Below are positions 586 to 14,415 of a stretch of DNA of 14,415 nt, one piece after another. This stretch comes from a virus. Its lineage: Duplodnaviria; Heunggongvirae; Uroviricota; Caudoviricetes. The notes under the pieces were generated by a model. That model saw nothing but the letters and a program-made list of their open reading frames with translations, was not told the origin of the DNA and did not search any database. The stretch lies in IMG/VR virus record IMGVR_UViG_2711768057_000001. The stretch is one strand, 5' to 3'. Every line of letters begins with the position of its first letter. Positions within the stretch are counted from its first letter, which is position 1. Made by a program: the position numbers and the translations under genes.

Positions 586-1776
586 ATGGCGCGTATCACA
601 CGCCCCCTCACTAACAATGAAATCCTTAAAGCCAAACCCCGTGAAAAAGACTTCACCCTTCATGATGGTGATGGCTTGTTCTTGCTCGTCAAAACCACTG
701 GTAAAAAACTCTGGCGCTTCCGTTATCAACGACCGGGAAGCAGCAGCCGCACAAATTTGAGTCTCGGCTCATACCCTGCCCTTACACTCGCAGCAGCACG
801 TCAGATACGCGACCAGCACTTAATCACGCTTGCGCAAGGCATGGATCCACAACAGCAACAGGAGCAGGCGTCAGAACAACGCCAGATTGAGTTAGACAGC
901 ATTTTCTCAACAGTAGCTGCTAAATGGTTCCAGATTAAAAGCAGAAGTGTCACAGAGGATTATGCAAAGGATATTTGGCGTTCTTTGGATAAAGACGTGT
1001 TCCCGGCAATCGGTGCGATACCAGTTCAGGAGATTAAGGCCAGAACGATTGTTGAAGCATTGGAGCCAATAAAAGCACGTGGCGCATTAGAGACGGTTCG
1101 TCGCCTAGTCCAGCGTATTAACGAGATAATGATTTACGCGGTTAATACCGGTCTGATTGATGCAAATCCGGCATCAGGTGTTGGAATGGCATTTGAGAAA
1201 CCCAAAAAACAAAACATGCCCACGCTACGACCAGAAGAATTACCCAAGCTGATGCGTTCTCTGGTCATGTCAAATCTATCTGTTTCGACTCGCTGTCTTA
1301 TTGAGTGGCAGCTTCTGACCCTAGTGCGTCCTTCTGAGGCTTCTGGTGCTCGCTGGGTAGAGATCGATCTCGATGCCAAACTCTGGACGATTCCCGCCGA
1401 ACGAATGAAGGCTAAGCGTGAACACATTGTTCCTTTATCACCACAAGCATTAGAAATTCTGGATGTGATGAAACCTATCAGTGCTCATCGTGAGCATATT
1501 TTCCCGAGCAGGAATGATCCAAAGCACGCCATGAATAGTCAGACAGCAAATGCAGCGCTGAAACGTATTGGCTATGGAGGAAAACTCGTAGCCCATGGAT
1601 TACGCTCTATTGCCAGTACGGCCATGAATGAAGCTGGATTTAATGCTGATGTGATAGAGGCTGCTTTAGCCCATTCTGATAAAAATGAAGTAAGAAAAGC
1701 TTATAACCGCTCTACATATTTAGAACAACGTAAAGAGCTTATGTCATGGTGGGGAAGTCGAGTAAATAAAATATGA
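586..1776 (+). CDS. int: Tyrosine recombinase, P4-type integrase (396 aa)
   Basis: Full ORF with a GGAAGGG Shine-Dalgarno upstream. N-terminus MARITRPLTNNEILKAKPREKDFTLHDGDGLFLLV is typical of P4/CP4-57-type integrases, and the C-terminal catalytic region has HGLRS...Y. Position directly 3' of tmRNA fits. Confidence 0.9.
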   Translation: MARITRPLTNNEILKAKPREKDFTLHDGDGLFLLVKTTGKKLWRFRYQRPGSSSRTNLSLGSYPALTLAAARQIRDQHLITLAQGMDPQQQQEQASEQRQIELDSIFSTVAAKWFQIKSRSVTEDYAKDIWRSLDKDVFPAIGAIPVQEIKARTIVEALEPIKARGALETVRRLVQRINEIMIYAVNTGLIDANPASGVGMAFEKPKKQNMPTLRPEELPKLMRSLVMSNLSVSTRCLIEWQLLTLVRPSEASGARWVEIDLDAKLWTIPAERMKAKREHIVPLSPQALEILDVMKPISAHREHIFPSRNDPKHAMNSQTANAALKRIGYGGKLVAHGLRSIASTAMNEAGFNADVIEAALAHSDKNEVRKAYNRSTYLEQRKELMSWWGSRVNKI

Positions 1777-1782
1777 AAAAAC

Positions 1783-1807
1783 AGCATCGCCTTTAATGAC
1801 GATGCTG
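1783..1807 (-). terminator. Hairpin between the convergent int and helicase genes; likely terminator of the minus-strand defence operon
   Basis: CAGCATCG (1783-1790) pairs with CGATGCTG (1800-1807); an A-run at 1777-1781 supplies the T-tract on the minus strand. Confidence 0.5.
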
Positions 1808-1813
1808 CGTGTC

Positions 1814-3712
1814 TTACTGCATATCGAGGAAGAATCTTGATGCAGGATGATATTTATAATCCCCCCAAGGCATCATTCTTTTTTCTGGATAAGTAACAAA
1901 AATCCAACGCCGAGATCGTGTTATAGCTACGAAAGCATTATTTCTTTCTTCATCTAGCTCGACTTTGCTCTTAGCTCGATAATCTGGAAAAACCCCCTCA
2001 CACATACCGATAAGGAAAACTATATCTTTTTCAAGTCCTTTCATTGTATGAACAGTACTTAACATAATCCCATTATTTAAGGTATCATCATTAAGCTGAC
2101 CCAAAGCAAGTGCATTCCTAAATGAGGATAGATTATCACCGAGGCCTTTACGTTTGAATCGTGTCCACATGGATTGAAGCTGCTCTATATCTTTAATCCC
2201 TGTGGCAATATCATCTTCTTTAGCAGAATCTTTGGTATTTGCTCCTAAATTCACCAGTTCTGATTTAATATCTAAACAGAACTTCAAAATATTAGGTGTG
2301 TCTACAGACATATGATCAATATGTGCTAAAACCAAGCTAATTAAATCTTTATCTAGGTTAGATGATTTTTTTATGTCAGCATAGACTTTGCTAATATCGT
2401 AGGTAACATCTGATTCTGGATTTAATTCTAAACCGATTAATTTATACAATCTCTTCCCATCAACCCAATCCTTTGGATTAACCTTAACCCTTATAGCAAG
2501 ATCGACTATTTTCCCAATAAGAGAAACAGGCGATTCATTTCTATCACTACGCTTTAGGAAATAAGGTATATTTCTTTTTTTAAGCTCACTTTCCATAGCT
2601 TTAAAAACAAATCTATTTCTACCTATAACAACAATTTTAGAGCAATCAATATCGCCCTCAATTTCTGGATGTCTTTTTAAATTCAGTATATGTTGAATGC
2701 TATCACAAACCCATATAGCTTCAGATTCTTCATCTGGTAAAGCATTAAAAGATTTATAGCCATCAAGAGCAGCATTAACACCAACTTGGCTATTTGGTTT
2801 TAATTTATTAGCTAATTCAATCACTGCTTTCGAAGATCTATAGTTCTCGTTTAAACAATAAATTTTAGGAGTAAAATCTTTCACGAATGATTTAATAAAA
2901 TAATCTGATGATGAACCATTAAAACCATAGATCATCTGGTCACTATCACCAACCATCATGACATCTTTTATTTTATCACCGCAGAGAACCTTTATAAATT
3001 CGTACTGAGCTCTGTTTAAGTCTTGAGCTTCATCAACAAATAAAGCAACGTATTTTTTTTGATATATTCTTGCTACTGAATCTTGATTTAATAGGATTTT
3101 ATGTGCATATAAAAGTATATCATCAAAATCCACACCACCACTTTCCAATAAAGCAGACTGATAATCTTGATAAATATTCCAAATACGCGGATTGGAACTG
3201 AATTTTATCTTTACTTCATCTTCAGTTAAAAGCTCTCTTTTAATAATAGAGAATACATTAAGATATTGACTTATAATTTTTTCACGATTGCGCTTTTCTC
3301 TAACGTCCTCAACATCTAAGTATTCATCAATATTAACCCCCTGTTCTCTTAAGGAATGTAGAAAAACCTCCATCCGATCTTGGTCACGTTCAAATATATG
3401 TAATTCTTTTGGTAACCCAATAGTATACCCATAACTTTCGAGTACCCTTTGTGCAACAGAATGAATCGTAGCAATCCAAATCCTATCACGATTTTCTGAG
3501 CCATCATCTAACCTTTCAAGCATTTCATCTGCTGCTTTATTTGTGAATGTTAAAGCAACCACACTTCCTCTAGCAGAGTTATTGAGAATGAACCTAACCC
3601 TCTCAGTAAGCACTCTTGTTTTACCAGACCCTGCAGATGCAAGAACTTGTATAGCCCCTCCCATAGGAGCTTTAACAACTTCAATTTGAGATTGTGATAA
3701 ATTATCAATCAT
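1814..3712 (-). CDS. gajB: UvrD/PcrA/Rep-like superfamily 1 helicase (632 aa), Gabija GajB-like
   Basis: SF1 helicase motifs read from the translation: I AGSGKT, Ia TFTNKAADEM, II VDEAQD, III VGDSDQMIYGF, IV NYRSS, V TVHTMKGLEKDIVF, VI VAITRSRR. Start ATG overlaps the upstream OLD-like stop (ATGA at 3709-3712). Confidence 0.8.
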   Translation of the reverse strand: MIDNLSQSQIEVVKAPMGGAIQVLASAGSGKTRVLTERVRFILNNSARGSVVALTFTNKAADEMLERLDDGSENRDRIWIATIHSVAQRVLESYGYTIGLPKELHIFERDQDRMEVFLHSLREQGVNIDEYLDVEDVREKRNREKIISQYLNVFSIIKRELLTEDEVKIKFSSNPRIWNIYQDYQSALLESGGVDFDDILLYAHKILLNQDSVARIYQKKYVALFVDEAQDLNRAQYEFIKVLCGDKIKDVMMVGDSDQMIYGFNGSSSDYFIKSFVKDFTPKIYCLNENYRSSKAVIELANKLKPNSQVGVNAALDGYKSFNALPDEESEAIWVCDSIQHILNLKRHPEIEGDIDCSKIVVIGRNRFVFKAMESELKKRNIPYFLKRSDRNESPVSLIGKIVDLAIRVKVNPKDWVDGKRLYKLIGLELNPESDVTYDISKVYADIKKSSNLDKDLISLVLAHIDHMSVDTPNILKFCLDIKSELVNLGANTKDSAKEDDIATGIKDIEQLQSMWTRFKRKGLGDNLSSFRNALALGQLNDDTLNNGIMLSTVHTMKGLEKDIVFLIGMCEGVFPDYRAKSKVELDEERNNAFVAITRSRRWIFVTYPEKRMMPWGDYKYHPASRFFLDMQ

Positions 3713-5484
3713 AGCTCAAGCCATCCCCTAACTTTATTAAATGCAATAATAACAGATTCCGGAAGTAATTCCTCAATTCTCTTTCCATTTGCATTCTGTG
3801 CTAGAATCACCCCTAAATACCCTGCATAACTAGCTTTTGAGTCACGCATTTTTTCAATTATAGCACTATCTTGTAAAGCCTCTATTTCTCTTTTCTTGGC
3901 ATCTCGATACCGTTCATTAGGACTAGCTTTGGTTTCACTTAACACTAATGATTCAATTATTTCCTCACGAATATTCAACTCGTTGTATAACTCAGCTTCA
4001 ATATCATTTGTTTCTTTGAGGAACTCTAAGGAGAAACAATCAGGATTCAATACGAGGCCATCTTCACGAACTAAACGTGCTACCTGACGGTTTATCTCAC
4101 CATGAGTATCACCATCATTATCACTAATAATACAGACAGGGATACCTAAATTACTTGCAAGTTTAATGAATGGTGGGTAATTTTTACCACTGACACTTAC
4201 ACAGTTAACTCCAACACTGAACATCGTCCTACCGAAATACAATTCAAACATGGATGGTATTAATTGTTCTTCTGTAACACCCTCACATAAAATTAAGGCT
4301 CGAGAGAAAAGCAACTCACCACGGGTTAACATTATCTCCCTTTTTAATGCATTTTTTTCATCATGTTCAATTCTTTTCTTCAGACAATTTACTGTTACTC
4401 CATCACCTTTCTTTATGAATGATCTTATATCTTCTATCTCAGCCATTGCGCTCAGGTATGGTGAATGAGTACTCAGTATAATTTGTCCCTGAGATGATGA
4501 TAACTGTTTAAACAAGGTTCTTTGTGCATTGGGATGTAGATGCGCTTCTGGCTCTTCAGCTCCAACAATTGGATGTAGCGCCTTATTTTCGAGCTCATGC
4601 CGCTCATGCATAAAGCTTAAAAACGATTGAACTGTAAGCATTGAAGCCCAACTTCTCGTCCCCGTGCCATGATATTCCATTGAAAATGAATGGTTTTCTT
4701 CATCTCCGAAATGTACTGTAAATTGCTTTGATAGATCTCGGATTTTTTTAGGGAAAGGAGTTATTTCTGTGTGGCTTGATCCTAGAAATGATTGGTTTAA
4801 CCCTTGAAGTGAATTTTTTAAGCTTTGAAGCGGCTCACTTCTACTCACTGCGGTTTCATTTATTGAACTTATCATTTCTTCAAGTGCAGTAACATCTTCA
4901 TCTTCATATTTAATATATGATAAGACCTTCCCTATATATGAGCTTTTATCTTTAAGCTCATGATGTATATCCCTCTGAGCCTCAATACAAATATAGGGGA
5001 TTGCATCAACTTTTGTTCTTACCTTTCTTCTCTCGTTGACAACAATGTCTTTCCATCCCTCAAACTCCCCCCATTCATTCAAATAATAACGTTGTGTATT
5101 AAACCCACCTTTTATCTCATCTGGCTGAACTTTTGTACGAATAGCCACAAACTCATGTCCATTTGCATCTACTGCAATATTATCACCGAAAACATCAATC
5201 CATTTTTCGTCAAACTCTTCTGTTTTATTACAATGTTCATCCGTAGGTATTATTTTTAAGTCAACGATAACTTCATTAACTTTTAATCCAGAACTATCTA
5301 TATGAAGATCTTCATCACTAAAGTAACGTTGGTAATCACCTAAAGCTAGTTGCAACGATTTTAGGAAAGATGTTTTCCCCGCATTGTTTGTACCTAACAA
5401 AACGGCAATACGTCCTAGCTCAACCTCAATTTCCTTTATACCTCTAAAACCTGAAATCCTAACAGAATTTATAAGAATTGACAT
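3709..5484 (-). CDS. gajA: OLD-family ATP-dependent nuclease (N-terminal ABC-type ATPase plus C-terminal TOPRIM; 591 aa), Gabija GajA-like
   Basis: Walker A GTNNAGKTS, Walker B-like IVGAEEPEAHLHP, H-loop STHSP, and TOPRIM motifs LILCEGVTEEQ and ISDNDGD. AGGAGG Shine-Dalgarno upstream. Paired in an operon with a UvrD-like helicase, the class 2 OLD/Gabija arrangement. Confidence 0.8.
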   Translation of the reverse strand: MSILINSVRISGFRGIKEIEVELGRIAVLLGTNNAGKTSFLKSLQLALGDYQRYFSDEDLHIDSSGLKVNEVIVDLKIIPTDEHCNKTEEFDEKWIDVFGDNIAVDANGHEFVAIRTKVQPDEIKGGFNTQRYYLNEWGEFEGWKDIVVNERRKVRTKVDAIPYICIEAQRDIHHELKDKSSYIGKVLSYIKYEDEDVTALEEMISSINETAVSRSEPLQSLKNSLQGLNQSFLGSSHTEITPFPKKIRDLSKQFTVHFGDEENHSFSMEYHGTGTRSWASMLTVQSFLSFMHERHELENKALHPIVGAEEPEAHLHPNAQRTLFKQLSSSQGQIILSTHSPYLSAMAEIEDIRSFIKKGDGVTVNCLKKRIEHDEKNALKREIMLTRGELLFSRALILCEGVTEEQLIPSMFELYFGRTMFSVGVNCVSVSGKNYPPFIKLASNLGIPVCIISDNDGDTHGEINRQVARLVREDGLVLNPDCFSLEFLKETNDIEAELYNELNIREEIIESLVLSETKASPNERYRDAKKREIEALQDSAIIEKMRDSKASYAGYLGVILAQNANGKRIEELLPESVIIAFNKVRGWLEL

Positions 5485-5601
5485 ATATTCATTCCCTCCT
5501 TGATTTTATGACATATACATTCCGAATAAATGTAATAATTCTGTTATCCAGATTATCATTTGCGGAAAATAAAATATAGTATATCCCAACCCTGCCGCGC
5601 A

Positions 5602-5620
5602 ATGCTCTCCCCGCCACGCC
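5602..5620 (-). other. cos-like 19-mer resembling the P2/P4 cohesive end
   Basis: Minus strand reads GGCGTGGCGGGGAGAGCAT, 16 of 19 matches to the P2/P4 cos sequence GGCGAGGCGGGGAAAGCAC as I recall it. It sits between psu and the cargo, as in P4-like elements. Confidence 0.5.
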
Positions 5621-5793
5621 TGCCCGCTTAAGGGGCCGCTTTTAATGCAGGTGCAAAGGTAGATTCAGGCCGCGCCGCGACTGGCGCTGGCAGGGAGTAC
5701 AGGGGTGGGAAAACGCATGCAAAACCATGCACCTTATGGATGCATGGCTTTTTTCGGGAAAAATAGCGGAATTTCCGGGGATGTTTTTGCGTG

Positions 5794-6360
5794 CTACCGT
5801 GCGGCCAGTTCTGCACGCCGGCGGGTATAAATCATGTTCTGTACAGGGGTGAATTTTTCACGATTATCATCCCGCGAAGGCGCGTCAGGCCTGTATCCGA
5901 TGGCCGTTAAAATGTCGTTATCCTGTGCAGAATAATTAATTTCATTTCCTGCGGCCAGCCAGACGGAAAGAGCTTCTCGCAGGTAATCTACTGAACGGTC
6001 AAGCGCACGGTTTTTTATCATCTCAGGCTGGTTCTTAATCCCCATCAGCTCCGGTGCCAGTGCGGCGGCCAGCTCTGCGCCGTCCTGCTGCATAAAATCA
6101 TGCAGCCGGTTACGAATGCTGATGCGCTGCACCTCTTCATGCGAGAAAATGTAGCGACCGGCGGCCTGATTAACTTCCCATTTTTTTATGTCAATCAGGT
6201 CGCGCTGCGACTGTAATCCGCGGGAACCTGATGCGTTGTCATCCAGCAATAATTCCTGATATTCCTGCACTGCGGCGGCCAGTTCGGCTTTACGGTTCAG
6301 CCACGCGGTTTTGTTCGTCTGACAGGCTTCATAGGCCTGCTGTAAGGTCAGGGTGGTCAC
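5794..6360 (-). CDS. psu: Psu-like polarity suppression / capsid decoration protein (188 aa)
   Basis: Translation MTTLTLQQAYEACQTNKTAWLNRKAELAAA...KWEVNQAAGRYI...FTPVQNMIY resembles P4 Psu as recalled. GTG start with AGGAGA Shine-Dalgarno 8 nt upstream. Confidence 0.8.
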   Translation of the reverse strand: MTTLTLQQAYEACQTNKTAWLNRKAELAAAVQEYQELLLDDNASGSRGLQSQRDLIDIKKWEVNQAAGRYIFSHEEVQRISIRNRLHDFMQQDGAELAAALAPELMGIKNQPEMIKNRALDRSVDYLREALSVWLAAGNEINYSAQDNDILTAIGYRPDAPSRDDNREKFTPVQNMIYTRRRAELAAR

Positions 6361-6376
6361 GGGTTGTCTCTCCTGA

Positions 6377-6622
6377 TTAGTGGCGGAACGGCGAGCTGTA
6401 GCAATCTTTTACCCGGCGAGGTGCTGCGGGTATTGTCGGCACCGGCGCGGGTTTCTCATCGATGACCGGAGAACGTATCACTTCAAAGATGGACTCATGC
6501 GTTTTGAATGTCGCCGAGCAGTGCACATTCTGGCACTGCAGGTAACTCTCTTTGACGCTCTCGGACATATAGCGGCTGGTGCGGACGTGAGCCGCCGTGC
6601 GGCAGAAAGGGCAGCGCATCAT
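6377..6622 (-). CDS. Ogr/Delta-family zinc-finger late transcription activator (81 aa, single domain)
   Basis: CPFC...C(x)nC zinc-finger pattern (MMRCPFCRTAAHVRTSRYMSESVKESYLQCQNVHCSATF), similar to P2 Ogr. Start overlaps the sid stop (ATGA at 6619-6622). Confidence 0.8.
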   Translation of the reverse strand: MMRCPFCRTAAHVRTSRYMSESVKESYLQCQNVHCSATFKTHESIFEVIRSPVIDEKPAPVPTIPAAPRRVKDCYSSPFRH

Positions 6623-7356
6623 GACAGTAGCCCCCGTGCTTTCAGGTCGGCTTCACGTTCCCGCATTTTTTCCTGCCAGACTTTCCGCTGAACGGGCGTG
6701 GCCGCAACGTCATGCTCCATATGCGGCAGCGTGGAGGCCGACAGCCCTGTTTTAAACAGCACCGGTTCATCGGTCAGACGGATATTGCAGCCCTTTACGG
6801 CCTGTTCAAGCCACGCTTTCACCTGCTGCATTACAACTTTTTCCGGTTCGGTATATCCCTGATGGCCTGTGGTATTGGCTAGCGGGTTATTCAGAACCAG
6901 TATGTTGAGTTTCATTGCCCTGACCAGCGCGCTACAGGTGTCACGCAGGGCAACATCAAGCTCATGCTCTGCATACTGGCTGAGGACGCTGTGATGTGCC
7001 TGACGATACGCTCTGGCCGTCCGGTCACACGCTCCTTTAAGGCTGTCCAGCTCAAAAGACAGAACCTCAGCCATATTGTCACATTCCTGCGCCAGTTCCC
7101 GCCGTGCCACGCGCGTCAGATGGCGTTGTTTCAGCTCGCCGGTAACGACAGCACCACCGGCACGAAAGGCGGCGCGCCATGCGCCGGAATCATTGTCATT
7201 TTCCTGCTCCAGTTCCTTTTTTTGTGCTTTCACCTGGCTGACGGCCGCCGTGGTTTCATCCATACGGCTGGCATTGGCGAGATGCGCCGAGCGGGCAGTC
7301 TCAAGGCGTTCCATTGCAGGTTTAAGGTAGTCGGGAATAACAGCGGTCTGAGTCAT
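6619..7356 (-). CDS. sid: Sid-like capsid size determination (external scaffold) protein, about 245 aa
   Basis: Translation MTQTAVIPDYLKPAMERLETARSAHLANASRMDETTAAV...ARGLLS resembles P4 Sid as recalled. I place the start at the internal ATG at 7356 (AGGAGA Shine-Dalgarno 6 nt upstream), not the ORF-track start at 7422. Confidence 0.8.
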   Translation of the reverse strand: MTQTAVIPDYLKPAMERLETARSAHLANASRMDETTAAVSQVKAQKKELEQENDNDSGAWRAAFRAGGAVVTGELKQRHLTRVARRELAQECDNMAEVLSFELDSLKGACDRTARAYRQAHHSVLSQYAEHELDVALRDTCSALVRAMKLNILVLNNPLANTTGHQGYTEPEKVVMQQVKAWLEQAVKGCNIRLTDEPVLFKTGLSASTLPHMEHDVAATPVQRKVWQEKMREREADLKARGLLS

Positions 7357-7428
7357 GTCAGGTCTCCTCTTCATTTCAATCTGAGGAGATTCTGCCGCGC
7401 CAGACACAACAACACGATTCATTGCCGT

Positions 7429-7446
7429 TGTGGCAAAAATGGCACA
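7429..7446. promoter_or_regulatory. TGT-N12-ACA dyad, candidate Ogr/Delta activator site of the late sid promoter
   Basis: TGTGGCAAAAATGGCACA lies about 75-90 bp upstream of the sid ATG on the minus strand; TGT-N12-ACA is the known recognition pattern of P2/P4 late promoters. Confidence 0.55.
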
Positions 7447-7533
7447 AACAGACCTTAAAACCCGGCTGGCCAGAGAAAGGTCTCAGGAAAACCTTACTCA
7501 CTGTTTGTTTTTTTACTAATAACTATTCACTAC

Positions 7534-7627
7534 TGTTCACCTTGAGAAAAAAGATAAGTAATACAGTTAATTAAAGGGTGAACAGTTGAAGGTCTGACTG
7601 TTCACCGTCTGTTCACCACTGTTCACC
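7534..7627. repeat. Iteron cluster: four direct copies of TGTTCACC (three at about 10 bp phasing) plus one inverted copy
   Basis: Direct copies at 7534-7541, 7599-7606, 7610-7617 and 7620-7627; inverted GGTGAACA at 7577-7584. The octamer is identical to the P4 type I iteron bound by alpha protein, as I recall it. Confidence 0.6.
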
Positions 7628-7709
7628 CTTCTGTTTTTCTCTGCCGATACCTTTTAGACTTTATTTCGATTAAAAATCGAAATATATAACTAAAGGAAAT
7701 AGAAATTGC

Positions 7710-7763
7710 TGCATTGTAATGCAGTGATTTGCATCTGTTTGCCAGCGTTTGCCTTTGTTTGCC
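7710..7763. promoter_or_regulatory. Palindrome TGCATT-GT-AATGCA followed by three helically phased GTTTGCC repeats; candidate operator upstream of vis
   Basis: Palindrome at 7710-7723; GTTTGCC at 7737-7743, 7747-7753 and 7757-7763, exactly 10 bp apart. Confidence 0.4.
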
Positions 7764-7892
7764 ATAGCGAAAAGTCAATGTTTGTTTCCATGAAAATCTC
7801 ACATGACCTGAGGAAAAATATAGACATAATAAGGAGCTACCCGAAGCCGGGCGGACACGACCGGCACAGTATGGACTTTATGAGGTAGCCCG

Positions 7893-8159
7893 ATGCACAC
7901 TGCTTTTTCTTCCCCGTCTTCTGCCCCTGCCGCGCCACTGATACCGGTCTCTGATGCCGTTCAGGAGCGATTTATCCGCCTGCCTGAAGTGATGCATCTG
8001 TGCGGCCTGTCACGGTCAACCATTTACGACCTCATCAGCCGGGAAGCCTTCCCGAAACAAATCTCCCTCGGTGGAAAAAACGTGGCGTGGGCGCACTCAG
8101 AAATCATGGCATGGATGACTGACCGCATTGCCGAACGTAACCGGGGTTATGACGCATGA
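7893..8159 (+). CDS. vis: AlpA/Vis-family helix-turn-helix regulator (88 aa)
   Basis: [48 protein letters not shown] matches the AlpA-family pattern (RLPEV...G.S..TIY......FP......V.W...EI..W). Position divergent from sid corresponds to P4 vis (orf88). Confidence 0.7.
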
Positions 8160-8194
8160 TGGTGACCATTCAGCAAACAGCCCCTTTTTCTGGC

Positions 8195-8224
8195 TTGCTT
8201 CCCTTCGCCGTTTCCAGGTATAGT
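8195..8224 (+). promoter_or_regulatory. Candidate sigma70 promoter (TTGCTT, 18 nt spacer, TATAGT), P4 PLE-like early promoter
   Basis: Hexamers at 8195-8200 and 8219-8224, immediately upstream of the seqA-like element. Confidence 0.35.
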
Positions 8225-8253
8225 TTTATCGCTGTCGCAAAATCGGCAGCCGG

Positions 8254-8279
8254 GCGTAGGAACCCGTGTAATTCACAGG
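8254..8279 (+). promoter_or_regulatory. seqA-like element (GCGTAGGAAC ... ATTCACAGG), upstream target of the immunity RNA
   Basis: Direct repeat of the element at 8461-8501 and complementary to 8416-8436. Confidence 0.5.
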
Positions 8280-8286
8280 CGACAAC

Positions 8287-8309
8287 AGACGCGCCATGCG
8301 TCTTTTTTT
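8287..8309 (+). terminator. Intrinsic terminator hairpin with a T7 tract inside the early leader
   Basis: AGACGC, loop GCCAT, GCGTCT, then TTTTTTT (8303-8309). Confidence 0.55.
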
Positions 8310-8384
8310 ACGTCGTTGCTCAGGCACACCCATTTTTCGGGCTGTGGTGCTTATCCCATAGCCCCTGTCAGATAATGGTGGTCC

Positions 8385-8440
8385 GGGCGGGGCAGCCTTC
8401 GGGCTGGCCGGTATTCTGTGAAGCCGGTATTCCTACCCCC
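8385..8440 (+). ncRNA. Candidate P4 CI-like immunity RNA core (seqB plus a UUCG-tetraloop hairpin); boundaries approximate
   Basis: Hairpin CAGCC-TTCG-GGCTG at 8393-8406. The 8416-8436 segment (CTGTGAAGCCGGTATTCCTAC) is the reverse complement, in bipartite form, of GTAGGAA and TTCACAG in the seqA and seqC repeats. Confidence 0.4.
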
Positions 8441-8460
8441 GTTCGGGTCACCACCCATGA

Positions 8461-8501
8461 GCGTAGGAACTCCGGTGGTGGCAATAACCGCTATTCACAG
8501 G
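8461..8501 (+). promoter_or_regulatory. seqC-like element overlapping the ribosome-binding site of the first early ORF
   Basis: GCGTAGGAAC at 8461-8470 and ATTCACAGG at 8493-8501; the Shine-Dalgarno AGGAGG at 8499-8504 overlaps it. Confidence 0.5.
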
Positions 8502-8512
8502 AGGTTGCCCTT

Positions 8513-8707
8513 ATGGCTACGACCCTCACCCCGTCACACCCGCAGTTTGTTTTTGTGTTTGCCGCCGTTCGTCGCGCCGACCGTAAACTCCGCATCTGTA
8601 TGCTTCGTACCGTTGCCGGTGATGAACACGCCGCACGTCTTTCCCTCGTTCGCGATTACGTCCTCTCGTTTGCTGGCCGTCTGCCGGTTGCGGAGGTGCG
8701 CGCATGA
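8513..8707 (+). CDS. Small early-operon protein (64 aa), hypothetical; positionally kil-like
   Basis: Internal ATG at 8513 with AGGAGG Shine-Dalgarno 9 nt upstream. The upstream 119 codons of the ORF-track call (8156..8707) cover the structured RNA region and are not credible coding. Stop overlaps the next start (ATGA). Confidence 0.55.
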
Positions 8708-8931
8708 GACACTCCACCATTACCGCCCGAGACCTCGAATGTCTGGAGCATATGCGCAACGTCGGCCAGCTCGTCGGCGACCTGATGCAGGTGCAGGACT
8801 GCGCGACCGTTAGGCGTGACCCTGCGCAGCAGTTACAGCTCACCTCCGTGATTTACCTCATGACCGCCCAGCTAGACAGCGTGGTCGAGCGCTGCAATCA
8901 GCACTGGCTGACCGGGGAGGGTAATGTATGA
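8704..8931 (+). CDS. Small early-operon protein (75 aa), hypothetical
   Basis: GGAGGT Shine-Dalgarno 6 nt upstream; ATGA overlaps at both ends indicate translational coupling. Confidence 0.5.
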
Positions 8932-9248
8932 AAAAGCCATTACCACCCGTATTACGTGCCGCGCTGTATCGTCGCGCCGTGGCCTGTGCATGGCTAACCC
9001 TGTGCGAACGTCAGCACCGCTATCCGCAACTCACCCTCGATGCACTCGAAAGCGCCATTGCCGCCGAGCTGGAGGGCTTCTACCTGCGCCAGCATGGCGA
9101 GGAAAAAGGCCGTCAGATTGCCTGTGCACTGCTGGAAGATTTAATGGAAGCTGGGCCACTCAAGGCCGCGCCCTCACTGTCCTTTCTCGGGCTCGCGGTG
9201 ATGGATGAACTTTGCGCCCGTCATATCACCGCACCGGTACTGCACTGA
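8928..9248 (+). CDS. Small early-operon protein (106 aa), hypothetical
   Basis: GGGGAGGG Shine-Dalgarno upstream; start overlaps the previous stop (ATGA). Last gene before attR. Confidence 0.55.
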
Positions 9249-9498: not shown

Positions 9499-12400
9499 TC
9501 AGAACGACCAGTTCACACCAGCTACCCCGTTCCACGGGGATTCCACACCGGCACCATGGCTATACCCCACCCCAAGATGCCCGCTTAACGTACTGCTGAA
9601 TGAGGCTTTAATACCTGCCTGGTATATTCCACGTCTGCCCGACAAATCATTGACGAAATTACCGTCACTATTCACTTTCACCCGGTTATCATCGACAAAT
9701 TCTTTGCGCACAGCCGCCTTCAGCCACGGCTCAACTTCCATACCGTTCCCCAGACGCATGTTGTAACTCAGCGTTGCACCCAGTTCACGATATAAACTGC
9801 GGGTATCGACTGATTTCGATTCCATGCCATTGGATAAATGATATTCAGGGTTATCAGCGGTGAACCCCCGTTAACGATGCATACGGCGTCAGGTTCCAGT
9901 TACCATCGGTAAATCGCATCCCGGTTTCAATGTGACCGCCCAGCCCGTTGCTGCGATAACTGCCGTTGGCGGCTCCACCGCTGCCAACCGTGGAGTCGCG
10001 AGCTTCGGTACCTGCTAATACCAATAAATTACCGCCATTTTCCAGCAACATATTGGTCGCTAAATTGCCGGAAATGGAAAAAGTGCCGTACTGGTGAGTA
10101 CCGCTGATTTCAATACCGTTAGCCGTGCTCGTCTGGAGAGCGGCACCGCTGTTCTGGACGATATCTGTCGCTTTGCCATTATCGTTAACTGTCAGCGTAC
10201 CGCCTTCATTGATCTTTGTTTTTATTGCCTCTCCGTTAGCTGAAACTGTTTGTATTCCGCCGTCGTTAATCGTTGTCTCATTCGCCACCCCCTCGACGAT
10301 TTGTTCGCCGCCGGTGAGCGTCGTGCCTGTCGCAGTGGCTTTTGTTTTGACGATCTCCCGTCCGCCCGTATTGACCTGTGTTTTGTCAGAAGAGGTGTCT
10401 GACTCCATGGTTAACACGCCGCCATTTGCCAGCAGGATATTGTTCGCCGCACCCTGCTCGATGCTGAACGCGACGCCATCCGCGCGTGTTCCTGTGACCC
10501 GCGTCGCCCTGGTGGTTGCAACCAAAGCGTCCTGGCTACTCTGCTGTATCCCCGTTGCGCTGCCTTTCTCCCGCACATCGAGTGTGCCGCCGTCATTAAG
10601 CACCGAGTTTTCAGCCAGACCGCCCTCATTAACTACCTGTGAACACCCATTAATAATGGAACCTTCCGCTGTCCCGTTTGCCATAATTTGTTGTAGGCCA
10701 GAGACGATATCGGTATTGATTGCCTTACCATAATTCTGAACGGTTTGCGTGCCACCATTGATGTGTGTTTTCTCTGTTGACCCACCATCAACAATTTGTT
10801 CACCACTTTCGATATTTGCCTCAGTGGCTAATCCATATACCGTTTGCTTGCCACCTTTGATATTTGCTTTATCAGAAGTGGCACTGGCATATATTGTTTG
10901 GGTGCCAGCACTATTGAGTACAGTGCCAACATCTTTTCCATAAACATCCATTTTGCCGTTGGCATTAATAATCGTATCAACTGCCCGGGAACCAGTGACG
11001 ACTGTTAATGAGCCAGCGTTTTCCAGCACTACATTTTTAGCTTCTGAATTCCTGATGTAGAAAGCATCACCATAACTGTTGGTTCCTTCGATAAGGGTTC
11101 CGGAAGTTGTGGAAGCAATTAATGCGCCGCCGGATTGTTGCTCAACATGCTTAGCCTCACCACCGTCCTGAACCTCCAGAACGCCACCATTATTAAGTCT
11201 GGTGGTATCTGTTTTAGCCTCCTTCTGGACAATCAGCTTACCGCCAGCATCAACGGTAGTATTTTTCGCCGAGGTTTTAGCCACTACCGTCAGTTCGCCG
11301 GTATTTTCCAGCACAACATAATTAGCCTCCCCTCCGGTAATAGTGAAGTGAGAGAGCTTGTTGTATCCTTCAATATCAGTCCCTGCGCCCGTGTTGGCAA
11401 CTAAAGCACTGCCCGTCTCCTGGTTAACCCCATGTGCAATACCACCGGTATAGACAATCAGCGAGCCTCCGGCGCTAATATTGCTGCCAGTTGCCGTACC
11501 ATCTTTCTCAACAACCTGCCGGCTCCCGGAGGATATAATTGTCGTGTCAGCTTTCCCGCCGCTCTTGATATTTTGCGTTCCGCCGTTGATATTGGTACCC
11601 GTGGCAATACCATGATTATTAATATTCTGTGTACCACCATTGATTATGGTATTGGTCGCGTTTCCGGTAACATCCATTACCCCGCCGTTATCTATTCGGG
11701 TCGCATCAGCTTTAGCATTCGTTAAAACTGACATTGTTCCTTTATCTTTAATAATCGTCTTGTTTGCCGAACCATATGCGTTTATGTCTAAATGACCACC
11801 GTTTTCCAGCAACACATTGTCTGCCACGTGATTGTGGATGGAGAATGCACCTTCACTATTCGTACCGCTCACCGTCGTACCGTTAGTGTTTGTTTTTAAA
11901 ATTGCACCATCGTGCTGGGTAACATTTGTTGCCGTACCACCACTAACATCAAGCACGCCACCGGAATAAACTTCAATAACATCCGAGGAGCTGGTGTAAT
12001 CAACAATTTGCGTACCACCAGAATAGATCTGAGTATTTTTGCCGTTGACTTATTATTCAGAGACTGAGTTCCACCTTCAATCATCGTGTCCAGCGCATGG
12101 CTTTCATATACTCTTTGCTCACCGCCATTTTTAATGGTGGTTGTTCCTACTGTGCTCTGTTCAACATACTGTCGTCCACCATTTATGATTGTGTTCGTTG
12201 CAATACTTCCTTGCGTGATGTCCTGATAACCGGACTTATTTATCGTTGTACCATCAACATGCCCCTGAGTTGTTACTTTCTGCCCTCCACCATCAATGAT
12301 GGTTCCATTCGCAGTCCCCCCACTTATGTGTGAATTACCACCCTTAATTGTCGTTCCATTGCTGATACCACCTGTATAAACGTCCTGATTGCCACTGTCG

Positions 12401-12768
12401 ATTATCGTACCGGTGGAAATGCCCCCGTCATGAATTGTCTGTCTTCCTCCGTTAATGGTTGTATTATTAGCCTGCCCCACAAAATTGTTATGACTTCCTA
12501 CATCTTGATATCCACCCGATTCAATAAGACTTCCATTAGATACCCCGCCATGAACATTCTGCTGGCCATGGTTGATAATATGAGTGTTATTTGTTGTACC
12601 TCGTTCATCTACTCTTTGGCTGCCATCTACAGTCTCATCGTTTACCACACCAATAACATCAGGAGTGAAGGCCGTCATCCCAGGCGGGGCATATATCAAG
12701 GCAGATATCAATAAGGAAAGTACTGAGCGGCGACAATAATGGGGACTGGTCCTGTTCATAAATTTCAT
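9499..12768 (-). pseudogene. ypjA: ypjA-like autotransporter adhesin split over three reading frames, with a short C-terminal beta-domain
   Basis: N-terminal fragment has a signal peptide (MKFMNRTSPHYCRRSVLSLLISALIYAPPGMTA); a 700 aa repetitive passenger region follows; the C-terminal fragment ends ...GVESPWNGVAGVNWSF, the autotransporter terminal signature. The three ORFs (11896..12888, 9854..11956, 9499..9825) are contiguous but in different frames. Confidence 0.7.
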
Positions 12769-13139
12769 CCTCTGAAAAGTGAATACTGAGTAGCGTTTAA
12801 GCGACCTTAGCTCTGCTGCAACATCAGCCCACAGGCACCAGACCAGGGGATTCATCCTGAAGAGACAGCGCAAGTGTATTGTGTTCACCGCTCATCAAAG
12901 ACATCATGATGAAATGATGATATTCCACATAAGAAAGAAGCATTTTTTAAACGCAGTGCGCTGAAGTATGGTTGGATAAAAAAGTCAATCTATTCAGGGA
13001 ATACGGGGGTATTCTTTTCTTTCGACAATCAGGCCGTCGGCAAAATAAAATGATTTACATAATCGTTTCTGATGAATATCTTCTGCTCACATAAAAATAA
13101 CACAATAACTTTGAGATCGCAGATTCTTTTACTTTTACA

Positions 13140-13290
13140 GCATTCGTCCCCCCATTGTTGGGCAAATATAGATTGGGCCAGAGCACGAAAGTTAATACCA
13201 CGTTTGCACAGCTCCTCCAACAGCACGACAAGATGCCACATACTGCGCCCCAGTCGGTTCGGTTTACAGACTACCCGTGCGTCCACCGCC
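13140..13290 (-). pseudogene. Serine recombinase (Pin/Hin/Gin-type invertase) remnant; approximate extent
   Basis: ORF 13029..13286 contains VVCKPNRLGRSMWHLVVLLEELCKRGINFRAL, matching the conserved invertase motif (VVWKLDRLGRS...L...EL...GI.FRSL). The catalytic N-terminus and the C-terminal HTH are absent. Confidence 0.4.
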
Positions 13291-13671
13291 GATAATGTCC
13301 TGAGCAGTTTTTTCAGTCCGGACCTCCTGCCACGGTTTTACGTTGAAGAGGTAACCCTGAGCACGCAGTTCATCAGTCAGGCGTGGTGTACCGTAACCCT
13401 ATTATTGATGGGTAAGATCAAAAAAACTTTCAGGCAGCTAAGGAAAGTTGAACCAGACATTAGAATAAATATTTCAACCAATTACAGCACCAATTCAGAC
13501 ACCGCCAGCTCAACAAATAAATCAAGGGGTTACGTGAAAGCGTAGCCCCTTTTTCTTTGGTAGTGGCAGCAAAATGGTTGTAGTGTAAAAAATAATCCCG
13601 TTTAATCAATCAATAATACATATTGTTTCAATCTACGTTATTATCTCTTTGTAAAAATAGCCATTTATTAA

Positions 13672-14415
13672 TCATTGAAAACTGCTTTTAGAACTTGATA
13701 CAACGGGACTAGTCACAACAGGACTATTCTCAACGGGATCATCCTCAGAGGAACTATCATCAAAGTCATCATCCATAAATAAAATATCATCGAATGGTGC
13801 CACGCCCGTGATGAGTTTTATTTTATTATTACGATCAGTCAAGACTCCACTTAAACCGTTTTCGCTCACAGGTTTTAATGATTTTTCATTACTCTTGTTG
13901 TAAGCAGGCGCATTAAAAATACACGGAGTATCAAGATCAAACAATGACGTTCCCCAGTTCACATATTGAATATCATAGTTACTGAAGTTCTGTCCAGAAA
14001 AGAAGCATCCCTTAAAATCCAATCCACCTAAATTATATAAACCATCCTCTTCTTTTTGGAGAGCAATGTTAATTTTGGCTATCTCCCGGACATCATCGCC
14101 ATTTTTATATTTGAATACCGTTTCAAGATTTTCCCCACACAGTTTGACTTCTGGAAATAATTTGAAATCAAAGCCTATATTATTATGTATCAACGTAGAT
14201 GAACAAAAGATGGAGAAAGCTTGCAGTGCTGAATTATAGCTTTCGATTTTATCCTGAGGCTGCGCTCTTGGTAAAAACTCATAGCAACATTCATAAAAAT
14301 TAAGTAGAAACTCTGAAGACCTTCCATTTTTATCAAATAATATCCCCTTGAACTCATTCACAAACGCATCTTTTTTTTCTTGAATATCTATGGGGTGTTC
14401 CTTTGACTCTGACAA
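13672..14415 (-). CDS. Hypothetical protein, 5' end truncated by the window edge (at least 247 aa), AT-rich, acidic Ser/Val/Pro-rich C-terminus
   Basis: Open frame from the window edge to the stop at 13672. No domain I can recognise; composition suggests horizontally acquired DNA. Confidence 0.5.
   Translation of the reverse strand: MSESKEHPIDIQEKKDAFVNEFKGILFDKNGRSSEFLLNFYECCYEFLPRAQPQDKIESYNSALQAFSIFCSSTLIHNNIGFDFKLFPEVKLCGENLETVFKYKNGDDVREIAKINIALQKEEDGLYNLGGLDFKGCFFSGQNFSNYDIQYVNWGTSLFDLDTPCIFNAPAYNKSNEKSLKPVSENGLSGVLTDRNNKIKLITGVAPFDDILFMDDDFDDSSSEDDPVENSPVVTSPVVSSSKSSFQ

Follow-up and report, generated by a model that had tools for sequence, protein, structure and literature searches.

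At the end of the analysed window, by which we mean the whole 14,415-nt stretch of DNA, the minus strand carries a reading frame without stops that runs from position 14415 to a TGA at 13672-13674. It comprises 247 sense codons and has the C-terminus ...DDDFDDSSSEDDPVENSPVVTSPVVSSSKSSFQ. The GC content of the ORF is 0.356, lower than that of the window as a whole (0.45) and of the P4 core (0.49-0.60). This agrees with the initial annotation of the sequence, which had described an AT-rich ORF of at least 247 aa with an acidic Ser/Val/Pro tail. The accompanying statement that no domain could be recognised did not survive database searches. The ORF matches Pfam DUF5508 over model positions 17-263 of 263 (552.5 bits, cutoff 27, E 1.6e-166) and the NCBIfam model NF050179 (Ecoli_YpjCB, 'YpjCB family protein') over model positions 227-465 of 465 (542.9 bits, E 6.5e-163). 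The latter score stays under the cutoff of 650 set for full-length proteins solely because the frame of the ORF lacks half of the protein. With intact members of the YpjCB family, the fragment shares 97% identity and the chromosomal site ileY - ypjCB - pinH' - ypjA. Based on the family matches, the PGAP call and the geometry of the reading frames, we assign 13672..14415 (-) to the 3' portion of a frameshifted ypjCB gene (codons 211-457 and the TGA stop). The label 'orphan', which had been given to the ORF, is apt in the taxonomic sense but not in the sense of an uncatalogued gene, since the family is on record (DUF5507 plus DUF5508, or YpjCB).

In KSC9-type genomes and in K-12, the order of genes is ssrA - (integrated element) - ypjA - pinH remnant - ypjCB - tRNA ileY - ygaQ - glaH. 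The ileY and pinH'-ypjA flanks of ypjCB are conserved in K-12, KSC9, strain 165 and strains with divergent intact alleles. The remnant of a pinH-type serine invertase, known from PGAP and K-12 annotation, lies downstream of ypjCB in the same conserved islet (13167..13334, -). It keeps its place in strains with intact ypjCB alleles, with a Resolvase Pfam match in two such regions (L011/L012). A 12-bp G+C-rich hairpin followed by a T-run is found 120 nt past the ypjCB stop (13524..13551, +). It is terminator-like on the plus strand and, placed between ypjCB and the pinH remnant, may terminate transcription in both directions.

The entire ypjCB gene has a GC content of 34%, and in the repaired gene ATA accounts for 10 of 26 Ile codons, a rare-codon use of foreign look. 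Together with the location beside ileY and an invertase remnant, reported binding of H-NS/Hha at the K-12 locus (PMC3946193, PMC2408971) and the restriction of homologues to E. coli and Shigella, this AT- and ATA-richness supports the foreign or accessory origin suggested initially. The neighbouring ileY (L002 15794-15869), 750 bp from ypjCB, is a tRNA-Ile(CAU) that reads ATA; the tRNA demanded by the codon usage of ypjCB is the islet's own neighbour.

The sequence on the far side of the window edge can be followed in near-identical genomes. KSC9 differs from the window by a single mismatch (at 12083) in 14,415 nt, and three other pig isolates are equally 100.0% identical. PGAP annotates KSC9 13672-15044 as 'ypjCB, frameshifted' ('YpjCB family protein') and does likewise in strain 165, Res13-Lact-PEB08-01 and ZH48. 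In every near-identical genome, a TGA at 14442-14440 closes the frame of the 3' ORF just 8 sense codons before the TTG (14415-14413), and the interval between these two codons contains neither a canonical start codon nor a Shine-Dalgarno sequence. The N-terminal half is an ORF of 204 codons in the +1 frame relative to the 3' ORF. It starts with an ATG at 15044 after GAGG and ends with ...TAT GAA AAA AAA TAG at 14430. The frameshift site consists of an A8 run at 14433-14440 and the TAG at 14430-14432 (KSC9 coordinates), 18 nt past the end of the window. In the alignment with K-12, GAA AAC AAA ATA GAT faces a KSC9 sequence from which a single C is missing. The in-frame state is AAAACAAAA, and loss of one C creates both the A8 run and the TAG. 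This means that the A8 run is the product of the deletion and not an ancestral homopolymer. Just past the window end, the junction letters GAAAAAAAATAG mark the deletion allele and GAAAACAAAATAG the in-frame allele. When the C is put back, an ORF of 457 codons results, and the protein reads ...NSYEKKIDEISS... across the junction.

We propose, with a probability of about 90%, that the 3' ORF is the out-of-frame back half of ypjCB, a horizontally acquired chromosomal gene of E. coli and Shigella that was broken by a 1-nt deletion. Here, an ancestral ...TAT GAA AAC AAA ATA GAT... would have lost one C to become ...GAA AAA AAA TAG. Translation would then stop after 204 codons, and the last 247 codons would be left in the -1 frame, without a start codon or ribosome-binding site. 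As the -1 frame lacks both of these signals, the fragment in the window is most likely untranslated and, judged by its sequence, most likely non-functional. The deletion in the window's own genome we infer from the near-identical genomes, all of which agree.

The initial annotation had pictured an intact gene, cut by the window edge, whose N-terminus would be found by following the same frame outwards. The edge indeed cuts the ypjCB gene but not the 247-codon ORF itself. In KSC9 and the other full-length matches this frame ends at the TGA at 14442-14440, and what lies upstream is an interruption, with no translation signal belonging to the 3' ORF. Because of this frame break and the missing signal, the ORF is a pseudogene fragment in the present strain, and an ordinary one, from a known and already annotated orphan family. 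A functional member would be a single frame of ~450-475 codons; the deletion leaves ORFs of 204 and 247 codons in different frames, and the window copy is a pseudogene member of the YpjCB family. For the window itself this is of little consequence, as RefSeq already annotates the pseudogene fragment.

The lesion is one of several in the species. Of 5,426 complete E. coli genomes, 3,163 contain the final 1,016 nt of the window, nearly always as a single, chromosomal copy annotated 'YpjCB family protein'. Of the two versions of a 68-nt probe, the one with the deletion (A8 allele) has exact matches in 283 complete E. coli genomes and the in-frame one in 1,511. On the strength of these sequences, the deletion is the derived and minority state. 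In K-12, a different lesion, CAG->TAG at codon 161, divides the gene into 'ypjC' (b2650, 160 aa) and 'ypjB' (b2649, 263 aa), whereas the 1-nt deletion of the window allele lies at codon 203. The K-12 lesion is exactly matched in 1,230 genomes and arose independently of the deletion in the window lineage. The Shigella flexneri representative carries the K-12-type nonsense codon and one more break. DUF5507 and DUF5508 coincide exactly with the two K-12 pieces (K-12 L003 7639-9012), and full-length proteins match both models end to end. Both belong to the same protein, which the nonsense codon of K-12 cuts in two. A by-product of modest use is therefore that DUF5507 and DUF5508 are no separate families.

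Unbroken YpjCB proteins, with lengths of 449, 457 and 474 aa (in some cases 484-492), are abundant, and two variants alone occur on 547 and 510 contigs. The intact alleles occupy the same locus, beside intact ygaQ and ypjA. Taken across E. coli, ypjCB is thus polymorphic between intact and broken states, with at least two independent common lesions. The inter-domain linker differs between alleles by indels (L010 6001-7425; P0012, P0080, P0121). The 474-aa allele contains a 25-aa tandem duplication (PPNVCME[SP]RNSY...), alleles of 484-492 aa have a 35-aa insertion (PVTKNSQQVKGHYGDKLKEMQMFLNQM...), and all linker indels are in frame. A second A8 run (GAA AAA AAA GAT; window 14348-14355, -) lies in frame within the 3' ORF and is shared by K-12; it is a further potential frameshift hotspot in ypjCB.

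The A8 run at the junction poses the question whether the allele might still give rise to protein. In E. coli, transcription tends to slip on long A/T runs, and ribosomes shift readily on heptamers of the lysine codons AAA/AAG, as in dnaX and IS elements. If the A8 allele were a recoding site, the 457-aa protein would be regained in useful amounts, either by ribosomes shifting to -1 on A_AAA_AAA or by RNA polymerase slipping and inserting an extra A. The gene would then yield a 204-aa YpjC-like protein as well as full-length YpjCB, or be expressed stochastically. The geometry is in line with this idea: 0-frame GAA AAA AAA TAG presents a canonical X_XXY_YYZ heptamer directly before the stop, and the downstream ORF lies at -1, the required shift, as in the dnaX A_AAA_AAG site and the A-runs of IS elements. 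Nor is the allele a singleton, given its 283 exact occurrences. However, unlike the dnaX and IS sites, this one is a recent deletion derivative that is unconserved and lacks a downstream stimulatory structure. The run derives from the in-frame AAAACAAAA, exact matches to the in-frame allele outnumber those to the A8 allele by 1,511 to 283, and the divergent intact alleles are in frame too. The 88 nt downstream fold with -10.3 kcal/mol (z = +1.08), 172 of 200 shuffles fold as well, and an internal Shine-Dalgarno-like stimulator is not evident upstream. Eight As also fall short of the run length for efficient slippage (about 9-10 or more), and A_AAA_AAA is less shifty than A_AAA_AAG in E. coli. 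The inactivation of ypjCB by unrelated lesions in other lineages fits plain decay. Given that the A8 site is a derived minority form without downstream structure, we reject programmed frameshifting or slippage as the main reading and consider functional recoding very unlikely; a small amount of full-length protein may still arise by frameshifting or slippage at the A8 run. Equally, the 3' ORF might be translated on its own as a YpjB-like protein that retains the function of the C-terminal domain. K-12 ypjB is annotated as its own CDS (263 aa), whose internal start ATG precedes the TTG of the window by 16 codons. Of the two halves of the protein, the C-terminal domain is the more conserved, and it folds alone in AF2 with medium confidence. 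Yet in the A8 allele the ypjB ATG sits in the other frame, where it opens a 10-codon ORF (ATG GAA TCA CGT AAT TCA TAT GAA AAA AAA TAG). The sole canonical start in the 3' frame is the TTG, which has no Shine-Dalgarno sequence, and PGAP treats the whole as a single frameshifted pseudogene. We regard such independent translation as highly improbable.

A broader alternative is that ypjCB is functional nowhere. On this view it would drift neutrally as the leftover of an ancient insertion, and an intact ORF would be one that has so far escaped disruption. The gene evolves fast: among three divergent intact alleles, dN/dS is 0.65-0.80 (Nei-Gojobori), whereas the same strains give 0.01-0.04 for glaH, 0.14-0.25 for ygaQ and 0.20-0.38 for ypjA. 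In line with a relic, dN about equals dS over residues 1-230, giving a ratio close to 1. At least about half of the carriers among complete genomes have one of the two common disruptions, homologues elsewhere are lacking, and the phenotypes in K-12 are weak (PMC3646849). The state of the reading frame speaks against a relic. About 5% of the possible substitutions in the AT-rich ypjCB create stops, and simulated random substitution leaves the ORF open in 4.3% (62 differences) to 0.09% (136 differences) of cases, the range of nucleotide differences seen between intact alleles. Every indel between these alleles is in frame. The C-terminal core (231-425) shows a dN/dS of roughly 0.2-0.7, and residues 336-378 are 88% invariant, compared with 15-21% at the termini. 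From the simulations and the in-frame indels we conclude that the integrity of the ORF is under selection in the intact lineages, which makes the relic scenario unlikely. The gene is dispensable enough for repeated loss, and fast-evolving. This unusual pattern, with dN/dS near 1 N-terminally and an almost invariant pentad block C-terminally, makes the intact allele a sensible y-gene target in work on orphan genes or H-NS-silenced islets.

YpjCB is truly taxon-restricted. An exhaustive phmmer search against 1.84 billion representative proteins returned 45 matches, and no relative outside the family was detectable. All but one of these matches are full-length or fragmentary proteins of the E. 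coli type; the sole exception, P0164, is an unrelated repeat protein and was dismissed as spurious. In species-representative genomes, ypjCB occurs in E. coli and Shigella only, apart from a 2.8-kb contig in a 'Planococcaceae' MAG. This contig (L005; DEQI01000374.1, 'Planococcaceae bacterium UBA3370') carries a ypjCB that is 98% identical to that of E. coli, and is almost certainly an E. coli contamination of the bin. Relatives beyond the family were absent from Pfam (E <= 10), from the PDB by phmmer and by profile search, and from PADLOC. In PHROGs, phrog_30093 (unknown function) was the only match. Carriage of ypjCB on mobile elements was considered and discarded, with 0 matches in 50,697 phage records; 'plasmid' matches were records of 4.8-4.9 Mb, which must be chromosomes, and one short fragment.

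Intact YpjCB (449-474 aa) is a soluble protein with 11 Cys and a pI of 5.1. It has neither a signal peptide nor a hydrophobic segment (max KD19 0.87), and its N-terminal 30 residues are Ser/Asn-rich without a hydrophobic core, a composition that is at most suggestive of a type III secretion signal. In one table, ypjB appears as a membrane-protein gene (PMC7414163), an assignment that we set aside in view of the missing hydrophobic segment. For the secretion signal or effector features that the initial annotation had suggested looking for, no support was obtained: Pfam, PDB, PADLOC and fold searches came back blank. No effector family was matched in the Pfam, PDB and PADLOC/PHROGs searches, and the ypjCB neighbourhood contains no T3SS genes.

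An AF2 prediction of full-length YpjCB was unusable (pLDDT 36). For the 247-aa window fragment, an alignment of 30 sequences gave a model with a pLDDT of 58.9 and a pTM of 0.58, in which residues ~40-170 reach 70-89. The model shows helices at 11-78, a three-strand meander at 86-118 and short strands about every five residues at 121-160. From residue 169 the pLDDT is below 50, and residues 169-247, including the tail, are predicted to be disordered. Foldseek searches of the fragment model against PDB and BFVD gave nothing credible (no match better than E 0.014 and a TM of ~0.2). Matches to actin-fold ATPases and RT fragments aligned only the ~40-residue beta-meander and were taken as meaningless. 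Based on these predictions, intact YpjCB would begin with an alpha/beta domain, joined to a C-terminal domain by a variable linker that is prone to indels, and end in a disordered acidic tail. The C-terminal domain is modelled as a helical bundle and a beta-meander, followed by a highly conserved block of seven pentads.

Conservation is unevenly distributed along the fragment. A helical segment with nearly invariant columns, FYECCY.FLPRAQPQDKI.SYNSALQAFSIF, covers fragment residues 40-70 (14206..14298, -), with predicted helices H35-50 and H53-78 and a pLDDT of 71-79 over residues 41-70. The predicted disordered tail opens with a conserved acidic-hydrophobic motif, GVAPFDDILFMDDDFDD (13756..13806, -; residues 413-430, 72% invariant columns). 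A likeness of its FMDDDFDD to the SSB C-terminal tail was dropped, as the motif is internal and not C-terminal. The variable Ser/Val/Pro-rich acidic end SSSEDDPVENSPVVTSPVVSSSKSSFQ (13675..13755, -), which the initial annotation had highlighted, is the least conserved segment (15% invariant). The 449- and 474-aa alleles have a shorter ending in its place, and dN exceeds dS in most pairs that differ here.

The most conserved part of the protein is the pentad block YNLGG/LDFKG/CFFSG/QNFSN/YDIQY/VNWGT/SLFDL (13933..14037, -; full-length residues 337-371). All seven pentads have a hydrophobic centre and five of the seven a D/N at i-1, a score that 0 of 5000 shuffles reached in this post hoc statistic. 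Invariant columns make up 88% of residues 336-378, compared with 15-21% at the termini, and AF2 places short strands about every 5 residues in the block, with a pLDDT of 71-82. The hydrophobic centres and the mostly D/N residues at i-1 are A(D/N)LXX-like and recall the pentapeptide-repeat proteins (PF00805 clan; Qnr, MfpA), which also include the T3SS effectors PipB2/EspX. With seven repeats, the block would make up ~1.75 helical turns, whereas known members are far longer. The Pfam pentapeptide models (PF00805/PF13599/PF13576) did not match at E <= 10, either with full-length proteins or with an isolated 70-aa block. In the PDB, the sole pentapeptide protein found was Qnr (3pss), with a non-significant E of 0.92, and there was no beta-helix protein among the best 50 Foldseek matches listed (best E 0.02, TM <= 0.17). 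The likeness to pentapeptide repeats is an unconfirmed, candidate lead that neither HMM nor fold comparison supported.

In our literature search, no paper mentioned DUF5507, DUF5508 or YpjCB, and ypjC/ypjB appear as list entries or with weak phenotypes. Between ileY and ypjC, K-12 has a sigma-70 promoter that bears an H-NS mark (PMC3946193). Hha binds the ypjC region, and ypjC was induced 9-fold (PMC2408971). Expression of ypjC rises about 2-fold in mixed biofilm, and its deletion has a modest colonisation-resistance phenotype (PMC3646849). All of these expression and phenotype data concern the truncated K-12 gene. Combining the conservation pattern, the medium-confidence AF2 model (pLDDT 58.9) and the genomic context, we infer that intact YpjCB may be a dispensable accessory protein silenced by H-NS/Hha, in which the C-terminal pentad block and the acidic motif would form a putative protein-binding module. 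More speculatively, it could be an E. coli-specific, fast-evolving 'conflict' protein, with an invariant mini beta-helix built from pentapeptide-like repeats and a disordered, acidic F/D-rich tail acting as a nucleic-acid or protein mimic. Pentapeptide proteins of the Qnr/MfpA type and acidic anti-restriction proteins would be the models for this. If this were true, recurrent pseudogenisation, as in the window, would reflect fluctuating selection. The evidence consists of periodicity, conservation and acidity, and we consider this a long shot.

The remainder of the window is occupied by other elements. A P4-like satellite (586-9248) is integrated at ssrA (tmRNA 40-402), where K-12 has CP4-57. 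It encodes a P4-like integrase (586-1776), psu (5794-6360), a delta/ogr-like gene (6377-6622), an Ash/Icd-like gene (8156-8707) and a DUF5375 gene (8928-9248). Neither a primase/alpha gene nor sid is annotated within 586-9248, and the element abuts a ypjA beta-barrel fragment (9499-9825), so it looks truncated. Between the integrase and psu, an AT-rich (31-38% GC) cargo slot holds a complete Gabija pair (1814-5484, -). It is formed by GajA (3709-5484, -; PADLOC PDLC00067, E 1.4e-245), with an OLD-type ATPase and a TOPRIM domain, and by the UvrD helicase GajB (1814-3712, -; PADLOC PDLC00132, E 2.8e-272). The slot coincides with a known defence hotspot of P4-like satellites. The ypjA/EhaD autotransporter adhesin (9854-12888, -) is a pseudogene as well; it is frameshifted and lacks its C-terminus, and its AIDA repeats are spread across two ORFs. 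In strains with intact ypjCB alleles, ypjA encodes a protein of ~1,526 aa.
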